Part shown: piece after piece, positions 1 through 3,000 of the stretch
How the letters are laid out: every line of letters starts with the position of its first letter
How positions within the stretch are numbered: the first letter of the stretch is position 1
Source of the DNA: a virus
Taxonomy: Duplodnaviria > Heunggongvirae > Uroviricota > Caudoviricetes
Direction: 5' to 3' (one strand)
Length of the DNA stretch: 13,180 nt
IMG/VR virus record: IMGVR_UViG_2703719368_000028
Program-made: the position numbers

Positions 1-3000
1 TGTAGTGAGCGAATGCCGGAGAAATACGATTTCGATATCTGGGTATTCTCTCCATCCAGAGGTGTTCTTGACGGGCTACAGTGGGATGGCTCGATGTTTA
101 CTGATGATGAATATCAGTTCGTTATTCATGACGCCACGCATTGGATGAGAAAAGTATATCCAGCAGCACCGCAGCAGGATGGTGAATGATGCCGCCAGTT
201 AAAGTTGTGATTATCACTTTGGTGATGATAGTGATTGCGAGAATCATGTCTGGTGAAATTGTGTGGATATGGTAATGGCTAAGGCAGCAGCAGAGCGCAA
301 CTAACAATCCTCGCACTCGCGGAGATTTCTTTTATACGATATAGGGGAAAAGGTGTGGTTAACAATATTGCAAATCACTCTTCGTTTCCGGCTGTAACAA
401 TCGACAGCCAGATGCTGTTGAAAATGGTCAATGAAGCTCGCAAGTTATGTGGAGAGCCATCAGTACGTAACAACAAATTCATCGAGAAAATTGAGGATGA
501 ATTGGAAGGCGAGACCTACACAAAAAGTGTAGGTCGGAAAAACGGGGCTGACATTGATGTTATCTCCATGACTATCAAGCAGGCGCTTCGTGTTGCTGCT
601 CGCGAATCTAAAGCAGTTCGCCGAACACTTGTAGACAAACTTGAAAGTATGCAGGAAGCGCACATTAAAAGCGGTAAATCAGCGAGTGGACTTGTTGAGT
701 ATCGTCAAGCGCGAACACTGAAAATGACGGTTGAAGCTGTTACCAATCTGTTCGATTTGATGCCAAATCTTGCGCCGGAAGCAAAGCAGACTGCTGCGGC
801 AAGCATAATCAACCCGCTCGTTGGTTTTAATGCAATACCTCTTCCGGCAATAGAAGAGCATTACTACTCAGCAGGGGAGGTCGCAGAGCAGCTCGGAGTA
901 ACGGCAAACAAGATTGGTCGCATTGCTAACGCAAACAACCTCAAAACTGAGCAGTACGGGAAGTTCTTCCTGGATAAATCTGCGCATTCCAGCAAGCAGG
1001 TTGAAACATTTCGGTACAACGAGGCTGGAGTGCACAAAATAGAGGAACTCATCGAAGGAGAGCGAAAGGCTGCATGATTTTGACAAGATAGTTTTCCCCA
1101 AATGTGGGGAAAAGCCCGAATGGCGCGGCTTACAGCAAGATAAGGCCTACATGATTTGACAACACCGCATTAACGGGGCTATATTCCGCTTCATGGTGCT
1201 CAAAACACCTTTGCGATAGCGGAAACCGCACCCGTCAGTCATGCGGATTTTTTTATGTCTACGACATTGAGAATTCAATGGTCGGGCGTGCGGCTAATAA
1301 AACACCCGCAAGGGAAATATGCCCGCCGTCTATCGCCGGTTTTGAGCGCCCGACCACCCTCTCAAAAGGGGTGAATTCAAAATATGCGATAGGACATAAA
1401 ACCATGGCTACTCAAATTTCTGTTGAATCCCTTTCCCCAATTACCTATAACCACATCCCCGTCATCACTACCGAACTACTGGCACGACTTTACGGCACTG
1501 AGACCAACAACATTAAAGTGAACTATACGCGCAATGCCGGGCGTTTTGTTTGTGGTAAGCACTACTTTAAACTGGAGGGTGGTGAATTGCGGGAATTTAA
1601 GAACAAGGTTACTCACAGTAACTTAGTTGCACCGCGAGCAAAGCACCTCATCCTCTGGACAGAACGAGGCGCAGCCCGCCACGCAAAAATGCTCGAAACC
1701 GATCAGGCGTGGGAAGTGTTCGAAAAACTGGAAGACTGCTATTTCAGCCCGGGCAAAGCGGAACAGCACCCGCAGATCCAGCAGCAATTCACAGACGAAG
1801 AAATCATCCTCCTTTGCTATATGCAGGTACAGATGGAGAATGCACAGGACATCTGCAAACGCCTGTACCCGATAATGAAGGAACTTAACTCATCATACGC
1901 GAGTAAACTGTATGACATTGCGTTTGAAACCTTCTATGCGGTGACGAAAAACAGAGATGTACTGCTCAGGGAGGCGACACGACTTGACCAGACAAGCGCC
2001 CTTTTCGAACGGGCAAGACCAATGTTGAAAAGCCTTCTGGCGAGACAATTCGAATTTTAATCATCAAAGGAGCTTCGGCTCCTTTTTTGTTGGAGAAAAT
2101 CAACCACCACTCGTTCCCTTGGTAAGCGTCAACGGAGCACCGTATTGACGCTTATTTATTGGTGAGTACTACGTTCCATGGCAGGAGTTCATCAACTCGG
2201 TTGGAAGGCCATTCCGGCAGTACGCTCAGGATATGGCGCAGATACGCTTCCGGATCGATACCGTTCAGACGGCAGGTGCCGATCAGCCCGTACAGCAGTG
2301 CACCACGCTCGCCGCCGTGATCGCAAGTTTTAAATATCCGGTCATGAGTCTTCTGGATATCTGCCGCCTCCCGGTATGGGAACTGGCAGCCGATAATTGC
2401 CTGTTGGCTATGTGGTGGGTGCCTACACAACCACTTGAAGCATTGAAGGTTGTAGAAGCGTGGGGCTTTCGTCTGGTGACGATGAAAGGATTAACCTGGA
2501 ACAAATGCGGGAAAAGACAGACCGACAAGCTGGTCATGGGTATGGGTAGCACCACTCGCGCTAACAACGAAGACTGCCTTTTTGCAGTGAAAGGAAATCT
2601 GCCCGAACGCATTAACGCCGGAATAATCCAGTCATTCACTGCACCGCGCCTTGATCACTCCCGCAAGCCGGATATGGCTCGAGAAAAACTTGTGCAACTT
2701 CTTGGCGATGTTCCCCGGATAGAACTGTTCGCCCGCCACACCTCGCATGGATTTGATGTATGGGGTAACCAATGCGGCACACCATCCATTGAGATGGTTC
2801 CGGGTATTGTTAAATTTCTGGAGAAAACCAATAAGCGAAAAAACGACGTTGACAAAGGCATCACCAGTTGAATTAAGGCAGTGTCTGGAAATCGCAAATC
2901 AACTTGCCAGAAGTGGAATACGATTTGTTCCAATCCCGATTACAGCAGATGCAGAACTTCATCTGTTTGGTGAAATTCTTTCCCGAAAGCTGGATGAACT

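Follow-up and report, generated by a model that had tools for sequence, protein, structure and literature searches.

An sRNA-Xcc1-family RNA in the leader of a prophage antirepressor gene: a probable c4-type antisense immunity cassette on a different scaffold

How is an antirepressor gene controlled when it sits behind a long leader that holds several short hairpins? The question is raised by a stretch of 13,180 nucleotides (nt) from a virus of the Caudoviricetes (IMG/VR record IMGVR_UViG_2703719368_000028; the whole stretch is referred to here as the window), in which a predicted promoter at 1156-1185 is followed by a leader that runs up to ATG 1404, the start of a gene for an ORF6N antirepressor. 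Region 1100-1420 is 100% identical to a stretch in Escherichia coli ERL04-3476 and ERL05-1306, where it lies in the early-left arm of a lambdoid prophage beside tRNA-Arg, and similar sequence occurs in 658/5,426 complete E. coli genomes. A preliminary description of this DNA had suggested transcription attenuation by alternative hairpins, or control of a small-RNA type. We have found that the leader encodes an RNA of the sRNA-Xcc1 family, flanked on both sides by short sequences complementary to two of its segments, and we consider it probable (roughly 0.78) that 1156-1403 is a self-contained antisense-RNA immunity cassette of the P1 c4, P4 CI and Gifsy-1 IsrK kind, built on the sRNA-Xcc1 scaffold. 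To judge from sequence and fold, the RNA is most likely cut from the leader and most likely blocks translation of the antirepressor.

The Rfam model sRNA-Xcc1 (RF02221) matches positions 1280-1363 on the + strand over model positions 1-87, with 78.1 bits against a gathering score of 53 (E = 3e-13). The RNA and its parts are as follows (bp, base pairs).

1280..1359, + strand: sRNA-Xcc1-family small RNA of ~80 nt (Rfam covariance-model match)
1280-1288/1347-1355, + strand: closing stem of 9 bp, acceptor-like, GGUCGGGCG with CGCCCGACC
1292-1324, + strand: hairpin 1, long, with the conserved apex ACCCGCAAGGG and CCC-GCAA-GGG at 1305-1314
1325-1340, + strand: hairpin 2, short, GCCG[UCUAUCGC]CGGU
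1329..1336, + strand: b' (UCUAUCGC, including CUAUCGC), the loop of hairpin 2 and first specificity determinant
1340..1346, + strand: a' (UUUUGAG), second specificity determinant, a single-stranded segment that joins hairpin 2 to the closing stem
1356-1359, + strand: 3' tail ACCC, directly after the closing stem

In the cmscan alignment the window RNA has a three-way fold, with the closing stem enclosing two hairpins and with the conserved ACCCGNAAGGG apex. Positions 1280-1359 fold with z = -2.5, and the minimum-free-energy (MFE) and centroid structures agree on the closing stem and hairpin 2; hairpin 1 of the MFE structure differs from the Rfam consensus. When 50 RNAs in a plain MAFFT alignment were given to RNAalifold, hairpin 2 and the apex were the sole elements to emerge, since the closing stems were out of register by one column. 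The ends are tRNA-like: among the 54 viral RNAs of the collection described below, 50/54 begin with a 5' G and 49/54 have the tail ACCC or ACCA, and it is because of these ends and the 9-bp terminal stem that we infer processing from a longer transcript.

The family is widespread in Proteobacteria and occurs in APSE, in islands of Xylella and in Shiga-toxin (Stx) phages, 933W among them; transcripts of other members are on record. The founder RNA of Xanthomonas campestris was cloned, seen on a Northern blot and mapped at its ends, giving 88 nt (PMC2996969), and the transcripts of all seven Xylella homologues were detected in whole-cell samples (PMC12189769). In E. coli EDL933, RNA-seq and Ribo-seq yielded an 89-nt 'sRNA-Xcc1' at 1392052 (-), expressed but not translated (40,293 reads; ribosome coverage 0.02; PMC5331693); the homologue that lies upstream of the ant gene of 933W, which scores 69 bits to the sRNA-Xcc1 model, fits this RNA in position, strand and length. 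In Xylella Temecula1 the RNA forms a tandem array of five copies ~380 nt apart, and in strain De Donno it adjoins an isrK + C4 pair (PMC12189769). The region of Xylella phage Xfas53 that carries the RNA (14482-14618) is labelled 'repeat_region' in its record.

The two specificity determinants each have a complementary site on either side of the RNA, and the downstream pair of sites leads directly into the antirepressor gene.

1195..1209, + strand: leader hairpin GGTG[CTCAAAA]CACC, presenting a1 (1199-1205), the complement of a', in a 7-nt loop
1213..1219, + strand: b1 (GCGATAG), complementary to b' in the hairpin-2 loop
1355..1373, + strand: a2 hairpin CACCCU[CUCAAAA]GGGGUG, whose 7-nt loop is a2 (1361-1367) and whose 5' strand reuses the ACCC tail of the RNA
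1376-1383, + strand: weaker second a2-like site, TTCAAAAT, recognised by complementarity
1386..1393, + strand: b2 (GCGATAGG), overlapping the Shine-Dalgarno (SD) sequence AGGA (1391-1394), 10 nt before ATG 1404
1404..2060, + strand: the putatively regulated gene, for an antirepressor-type protein of 218 amino acids (aa) (Pfam ORF6N, E = 3e-20; P22_AR_C, E = 3.5e-10)

The heptamer GCGATAG, to which CUAUCGC in b' is complementary, occurs on the + strand of the 13-kb window only at 1213 and 1386, and the complement of a' (UUUUGAG), CTCAAAA, is present at 1199-1205 and again at 1361-1367; folding places both copies in 7-nt hairpin loops. As in systems of the C4 kind, a' and b' are single-stranded and complementary to a2 and b2 downstream, b2 lies over the ribosome-binding site, and a second copy of the target, a1/b1, lies upstream in the same transcript. 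The RefSeq coding sequence (CDS) starts at ATG 1404. No open reading frame (ORF) intervenes between the small RNA and this ATG, and b2 stands on the antirepressor's own SD.

Evidence that these sites belong with the RNA comes from their covariation over ~90 loci. Related loci were collected by two pattern scans of IMG/VR and one of bacterial genomes, the pattern being the conserved hairpin-1 apex only, and were then filtered for the closing stem and an ACC tail, which left 54 distinct RNAs from viruses and 39 from bacteria; selection took no account of the a/b sites. A perfect complement of b' of at least 7 nt is present in the cognate upstream flank of 36/54 viral loci and in the downstream flank of 27/54, compared with 2.5% and 1.7% of non-cognate flanks, and the corresponding figures for a' are 21/54 upstream (0.8% non-cognate) and 29/54 downstream (1.9%). 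The replicate on bacterial genomes gave 32/39 (b' upstream, at least 7 nt), 23/39, 20/39 and 16/39, against 1.1-2.9% for non-cognate flanks. When all 54 viral loci were compared against all by RNAduplex, the cognate flank had a median rank of ~7 downstream and ~3 upstream, where chance would give ~27. These loci hold 28 distinct a' and 47 distinct b' queries, each b' being matched by its own flanks. The position of b2 is regular: in 44/45 viral loci for which a downstream ORF was called, it ends 5-13 nt ahead of the start codon, in most cases running into AGGAG.

Comparison of close relatives makes the same point one locus at a time. In P13374, the Stx2a phage of O104:H4, the a sequence CTCAAAA is kept, and b' has become CTACTTG with both b1 and b2 reading CAAGTAG. 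Phage Lyz12581Vzw has exchanged both parts, with a' TGTTCA facing CTGAACA in a1 and a2, and b' CTTTGC facing GCAAAG in b1 and b2. In 933W, b' CTTATTT is accompanied by b1 AAATAAG and, ahead of the ant gene, by b2 AAATAAGGAG. Three further loci (L038, L112 and L181) share one b' and differ in a', with matching changes in a1. E-values and shuffles ignore kinship among loci, an assumption of which the independent a/b variants and the swaps between close relatives are free. We also regard the longest-perfect-complement and RNAduplex tests as the stronger statistics, rather than the pair counts on MAFFT alignments, in which the a1-a' helix is 70% paired with 5/7 pairs changed on both sides, and in which the counts for the full module peak at zero slide. 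A landmark-anchored register test of b'/b1/b2, in which the anchors were often misplaced, found 12/39 fully paired compared with 0.2% of non-cognate combinations.

The part of the leader ahead of the RNA was the main subject of the preliminary description, and holds four further features.

1156..1185, + strand: predicted sigma-70 promoter, with TTGACA at 1156-1161, an 18-nt spacer and TATATT at 1180-1185 (11/12 matches)
1219..1229, + strand: stem 1, GCGG-AAA-CCGC, overlapping the 5' strand of the terminator; candidate antiterminator
1226..1254, + strand: predicted intrinsic terminator, with CCGCA at 1226-1230, the 11-nt loop CCCGTCAGTCA, TGCGG at 1242-1246, A, and T7 at 1248-1254
1241-1270, + strand: mini-ORF MRIFLCLRH, 9 codons, ATG 1241 and stop 1268-1270, with no SD

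Several statements of the preliminary description hold up well. Its picture of an antirepressor gene behind a long non-coding regulatory leader that starts from a strong promoter is borne out, as is the identity of the gene at ATG 1404, which carries both ORF6N and P22_AR_C domains in Pfam. The TTGACA-18-TATATT promoter matches at 11 of 12 positions and would start transcription at ~1191-1193. It is the sole promoter-like site that a promoter scan found in 1000-2200, although one site against 1.3 expected from shuffles is not above chance on a single sequence; its support comes from relatives, since a promoter-like -10 hexamer ends 23-29 nt ahead of b1 in 46/77 related loci with an identifiable b1, and a near-identical promoter in P13374, Lyz12581Vzw and Nil2 is annotated there as 'promoter by homology'. 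Neither a LexA box nor a repressor operator was seen at the promoter by eye; no scan for either was made. The stem of the a1 hairpin covaries in relatives, as GGAG/CTCC, GAGG/CCTC or AAGG/CCTT, with the loop changing along with a'. The description was also right to single out the stem at 1226-1246 and its seven-T run: a hairpin with a T-run lies between b1 and the small RNA in ~43/54 viral loci, and its stem covaries (CCGCA/TGCGG, CCGCG/CGCGG, CCAAC/GTTGG, CCACG/CGTGG, TTCAC/GTGAA), so that 1226-1254 appears to be a genuine, conserved intrinsic terminator. Termination here would release a short leader RNA of ~60 nt bearing a1 and b1.

Three side observations touch this part of the leader. The CGG directly 3' of b1 (1220-1222) is nearly invariant, P1 included, and persists in loci whose terminator stem reads CCAAC or CCCACC instead. 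The terminator loop keeps the sequence CCCGNNAGC in most loci (window 1226-1246, L007-L226, L227 4281-4312) and partly in P1 (CCGATA), which is unusual for an intrinsic terminator; no complementary partner for this loop was found. Finally, the block directly 3' of the U-run, 1255-1279, is fairly conserved, reading ATGCCTGCAATT in many loci and ATGTCTACGACATT in the window, and could be a processing site or part of an RNase P leader.

Taken together, these features suggest how the cassette might work. Transcription from the promoter at 1156-1185 would produce a leader from which a1, in its hairpin loop, and b1 emerge first, and the weak intrinsic terminator at 1226-1254 would stop part of the transcripts and give a short a1/b1 leader RNA. 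Transcripts that read through would hold the tRNA-like RNA at 1280-1359, which is probably excised and would then accumulate. RNase P most likely cuts 5' of G1280, because the 9-bp acceptor-like stem that begins there is followed by ACCC. The freed RNA could then pair through a' and b' with a2 and b2 of the antirepressor mRNA, in cis or in trans, and with the SD covered, translation of the ORF6N/P22_AR_C antirepressor would be blocked. Phages with the same a/b sequences would be repressed in trans and those with different ones would not, so that a and b would serve as a two-part address defining immunity classes. Pairing with a1/b1 offers two options: the RNA might modulate the adjacent terminator, as P4 CI RNA does, or the short leader RNA might titrate the repressor RNA, in the way of IsrK.

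A number of points weigh against this interpretation. The Rfam models C4, c4-a1b1 and isrK have no match in 1100-1480 even at E <= 10, and homology to P1 immI is therefore undemonstrated, leaving only an architectural equivalence. Since loci were picked by the hairpin-1 pattern and the closing stem, conservation of both is partly built in by construction. Pair counts on the plain MAFFT alignment are noisy because of register shifts. The downstream duplex of the window, a2/b2 with the RNA, is just ~1.5 standard deviations better than non-cognate pairs, and the upstream one, a1/b1 with the RNA, is much stronger (-20.6 and -30.3 kcal/mol, respectively). The integron cassettes of Xanthomonas lack a2/b2 before the downstream ORF (~89 aa). 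Finally, we infer the processing sites, the translational repression, the action in trans with the immunity that would follow, and the role of a1/b1 at this locus from the features set out above.

The Xanthomonas copies (L233, L242, L260, L299, L281) are instructive beyond this objection. They have the full layout of promoter, a1 hairpin, b1, terminator and RNA, and their b1 and b' covary; the tail of the RNA is AUCC there rather than ACC. Covariation of b1 with b' in cassettes without a2/b2 implies that translational masking is not a universal function of the family, and points to pairing with the leader RNA as its universal core. The whole sRNA-Xcc1 family could be a second, structurally distinct scaffold for programmable immunity RNAs of the c4/CI type, with each RNA's own leader as its universal partner, a generalisation towards which we lean by a small margin over even odds. 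If it is true, the second partner of the phage cassettes is the antirepressor SD, many heteroimmunity classes are defined in this way, and the family gates antirepressor-driven prophage induction, including that of Stx phages, as well as toxin cassettes such as symE.

The alternative that survives best shifts the site of action from the SD to the terminator. As P4 CI RNA governs termination through seqA and seqC (PMC3632133, PMC4825925), so a' and b' could act on nascent a1/b1 to control termination at 1226-1254, and hence transcription of both the RNA and the antirepressor gene, with SD masking secondary. Several observations fit this account: the covariation of a1/b1 with a'/b' is as tight as that of a2/b2 or tighter, of the two duplexes in the window it is the upstream one that is stronger, b1 ends 6 nt ahead of the stem of a conserved terminator, and Xanthomonas cassettes retain b1/b' covariation in the absence of a2/b2. 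It also retains the attenuator idea of the preliminary description, with an RNA factor as effector. However, when a1 and b1 were treated as occupied in structural ensembles of 62 loci, the probability of the terminator went up in 23 and down in 20 (p = 0.6), and in the window the terminator hairpin kept an ensemble probability of 0.94. The candidate antiterminator stem at 1219-1229 shows no covariation, its GCGG being unchanged in related loci where the terminator stem differs. Further, the window and most phage cassettes have b2 precisely over the SD and at a constant distance from the start codon, which would be difficult to account for if translation were no target. We regard control of termination as a possible primary function, with the balance of the evidence somewhat against it.

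A second alternative gives the short leader RNA (~1192-1254) an active part. By binding a' and b' as a decoy, either in the small RNA or in the long transcript, it would free a2/b2 and the SD and so activate antirepressor translation, which would make the promoter-proximal RNA an activator and the tRNA-like RNA a repressor. The leader has the layout of IsrK, target sites followed by a Rho-independent terminator, and the RNA pairs more strongly with a1/b1 than with a2/b2, a property required of a competitor; in Gifsy-1, short IsrK supplied in trans lifts antirepressor translation ~140-fold by competing with intramolecular pairing (PMC4825925). Against this, both RNAs share one promoter and the terminated species should be the commoner, so that a pure decoy would derepress the gene constitutively unless it were much less stable, and the Rfam isrK model has no match in the window. 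We consider this decoy model rather unlikely.

The idea with which the preliminary description began, a classical attenuator acting in cis, fares much worse. In it, the choice between two hairpins that cannot coexist would settle termination or read-through, with translation of the 9-codon mini-ORF as a possible sensor and no trans-acting RNA. Both stems and the T-run are present and overlap, and the MFE and centroid structures of 1192-1256 choose different stems, so that the two are close in energy. Yet the fold of this leader segment is no better than that of shuffles (z = -0.35), stem 1 has 4 bp (an arrangement also possible in P1) and does not covary with the terminator, and the Rfam RNA and four covarying complementary sites are left unexplained. 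A switch between the two hairpins through an antiterminator is unsupported, given the lack of stem-1 covariation and of a consistent ensemble effect in the 62 loci. The mini-ORF is present and, as had been said, has no ribosome-binding site of its own, so that 1241-1270 does not amount to the conserved, translatable ORF of a leader-peptide attenuator. Its ATG is part of the 3' strand of the terminator and is missing in most relatives (catCGCGG, gtGTTGG), which makes it a chance feature and leaves leader-peptide attenuation out. Attenuation in cis is thus very improbable. What stands of the proposed types of control is the involvement of a small RNA, and what falls is attenuation by a leader peptide or by alternative hairpins. 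The regulation had been sought at 1219-1246; the probable key regulator is instead the RNA at 1280-1359, with the a/b sites at 1199-1219 and 1361-1393. The caveat that short stems are weak evidence was a fair one: on the single sequence, the features named in the description are not above chance. On the whole, the earlier observation is partly confirmed and its interpretation partly supported.

It is similarly hard to credit that the RNA is a general trans-acting regulator of host or virulence genes whose position before an antirepressor gene is incidental. Chen et al. 2011, as later papers cite it, describes sRNA-Xcc1 as trans-acting and controlled by HrpG/HrpX, and many host targets have been predicted computationally (PMC2996969, PMC12189769). 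However, the variable parts of the RNA track its own flanks in ~90 independent loci, which host targets could not produce, and the downstream genes overwhelmingly belong to antirepressor families; extra targets in trans may exist all the same. Coding by 1278-1403, as an N-terminal extension of the ORF6N protein from the in-frame, open ATG 1278, can be set aside: ORF 1278-2060 does appear in the ORF listing and the P13374 record has a small CDS across the equivalent stretch, but the RefSeq protein starts at 1404 with an SD ahead of that ATG, the stretch is a structured RNA family kept before unrelated proteins, and the indels of relatives are not multiples of three. In P13374 this small CDS is a 48-aa 'antB2' annotated right across the small RNA (L229 1555-1701), and it is the same kind of artefact as the window's ORF extension from ATG 1278.

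The genes that follow related cassettes bear out the connection with antirepressors. After 45 viral cassettes, the first ORF carries P22_AR_C in 8 cases, KilA-N in 6, ORF6N in 6, Rha in 4, Bro-N in 4, AntA in 4 and P22_AR_N in 3, and most of the remaining first ORFs encode ~80-aa proteins with no Pfam match. Cassettes can also follow one another. In Nil2 (L001 1921-3147) and P13374 (L229 567-1673), isrK and C4 precede antA, and a leader with sRNA-Xcc1 then precedes antB; these phages thus carry a C4 and an Xcc1 cassette in tandem, before antA and antB, and employ the two scaffolds together to one end. Two Xcc1 cassettes stand in tandem in Lyz12581Vzw (L228), at 1586-1674 and 2125-2210.

Some features of the surroundings in the window may be recorded here. 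Directly upstream of the cassette lies an ORF of 240 aa (355-1077), which RefSeq lists as a hypothetical protein and for which Pfam gave no match; its positional counterpart in related Stx phages is annotated as antA or antirepressor, and in the window no isrK/C4 pair lies ahead of the ORF. Just past the stop of this gene at 1077, the palindrome TTTTCCCCAAATGTGGGGAAAA at 1092-1113 was flagged as terminator-like on the minus strand; bordered by A/T runs at either end, it might terminate transcription in both directions. Downstream of the antirepressor gene, a transposase-domain pseudogene fragment (2152-2337, - strand) extends into the beginning of a methyltransferase gene of the MT-A70 family (2233-2871). 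Of the two integrase genes (4275-7033) that flank tRNA-Arg (5640-5714), the one encoding a tyrosine recombinase is on the - strand and the other, intS, on the + strand; two prophages thus meet within the window at a single tRNA site. Genes for P22-like ejection proteins follow the integrase/tRNA-Arg region on the - strand.

Within an incompletely searchable literature, we found no paper that links sRNA-Xcc1 to a c4 mechanism. Papers of 2020-2025 that mention the RNA cite the HrpG/HrpX observation or give its position upstream of an ORF6N gene or symE, with no mechanism, and a 2025 preprint places it upstream of the symE toxin in integron cassettes. What appears to be new, as far as the searchable literature goes, is the different scaffold and a c4-type function for sRNA-Xcc1; the logic of C4 and IsrK is known. 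If the proposal holds, it offers a concrete function for an RNA family that annotators routinely label and for which there is no accepted mechanism, and it extends c4 logic past P1-like phages and past the C4 scaffold; the elements of that logic are a leader RNA that is processed, a pair of short address segments, and targets present in duplicate. Antirepressors trigger prophage induction, and since the ant genes of 933W and of P13374, the phage of the O104:H4 outbreak, lie behind such a cassette, it may matter for the induction of Shiga-toxin phages and for cross-talk between co-resident prophages. The natural a/b variants would be ready-made orthogonal pairs of RNA and target. Universal a1/b1 pairing also reopens an old question about P1, whose GenBank record labels a1 and b1 only as putative target sites.

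Among known systems, the closest in architecture is immI of P1 and P7 (c4; Rfam C4, RF01695, and c4-a1b1, RF03163), where the P1 record annotates promoters, a1, b1, the c4 RNA, a2, b2, icd and ant. Both loci share the order promoter, a1, b1, terminator-like hairpin, small RNA, a2, b2 and antirepressor operon, and the spacing agrees closely: a1 and b1 are 7 nt apart in both, the distance from b1 to the RNA is 66 nt in P1 as against 60 nt in the window, a2 begins 3 nt past the RNA in P1 and 2 nt in the window, and b2 ends 10 nt before a start codon in both, that of icd in P1. The leaders share the string CGG-N3-4-CCGCA-loop-TGCGG-U-run nearly letter for letter; in P1, where it follows b1 and the spacer is N4, the Rfam isrK model hits it with 35 bits, short of the threshold of 50. 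The topology of the Rfam C4 consensus is that of sRNA-Xcc1 as well: beside the closing stem there are hairpin 1 and a hairpin 2 whose loop carries b', a' occupies the 7-nt 3' junction, and the tail is CACC. Both the c4 RNA of P1/P7 and the window RNA stand ahead of antirepressor genes. According to Citron & Schuster 1990, in the summary given in PMC12197685, c4 binds ant mRNA around the ribosome-binding site, which is the basis of P1/P7 heteroimmunity, and the c4 precursor is cited as an RNase P substrate (Hartmann et al. 1995, as cited in PMC4919922).

The differences from P1 are nonetheless clear. On the P1 sequence, C4 scores 68.8 bits on c4, c4-a1b1 scores 51 bits and isrK 35 bits, whereas the sRNA-Xcc1 model has no match to P1 c4 at E <= 1. 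Hairpin 1 of the window RNA is long, with a conserved AAUACAA/GAAUA internal loop and the ACCCGNAAGGG apex, in contrast to the short UUCG hairpin of c4; the closing stem has 9 bp in the window and ~17 in c4, and the P1 leader has an extra 5' hairpin. In P1, b2 lies on the ribosome-binding site of the small icd ORF that is coupled to ant, while in the window, where no icd-like small upstream ORF was found, it lies on the antirepressor's own SD. No C1-type operator was seen at the window promoter (by eye; no scan made).

Other systems share part of this logic. IsrK of Gifsy-1 (Rfam isrK, RF01394) and seqA of P4 combine promoter-proximal target sequences, a Rho-independent terminator and read-through into an antirepressor operon (PMC4825925), a layout also found in the window, where a1 lies in the hairpin loop of 1195-1209, b1 at 1213-1219 and the terminator at 1226-1254; IsrK of Gifsy-1 accumulates as a short terminated RNA (PMC4825925). 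IsrK differs in that its model has no match to window 1186-1260. In Stx phages, the isrK-C4 pair before antA lies directly upstream of the Xcc1 cassette before antB. The CI RNA of P4 and the CA RNA of N15 are small RNAs processed from the leader of the operon that they control, with sites on both sides (seqA/seqC), and confer immunity without a protein repressor (PMC3632133); P4 acts by premature termination of transcription, whereas the downstream site of the window is so placed that translational masking would be expected. The sar RNA of P22 immI is also a small RNA that blocks initiation of translation on ant mRNA (PMC12197685), but it is a fully complementary cis-antisense RNA from the opposite strand, whereas the window RNA lies on the + strand like the gene and its complementarity consists of two short programmable segments of 7-8 nt. 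The sRNA-Xcc1 of X. campestris belongs to the same family by the covariance model (78 bits), and differs in that its cassettes lack a2/b2 while the window copy is prophage-borne and precedes an antirepressor gene; the literature treats it as an integron-borne, virulence-linked, trans-acting sRNA, or notes its place upstream of symE. Judged by these likenesses and differences, the window RNA would be rated as a structurally distinct variant of the C4/IsrK system.

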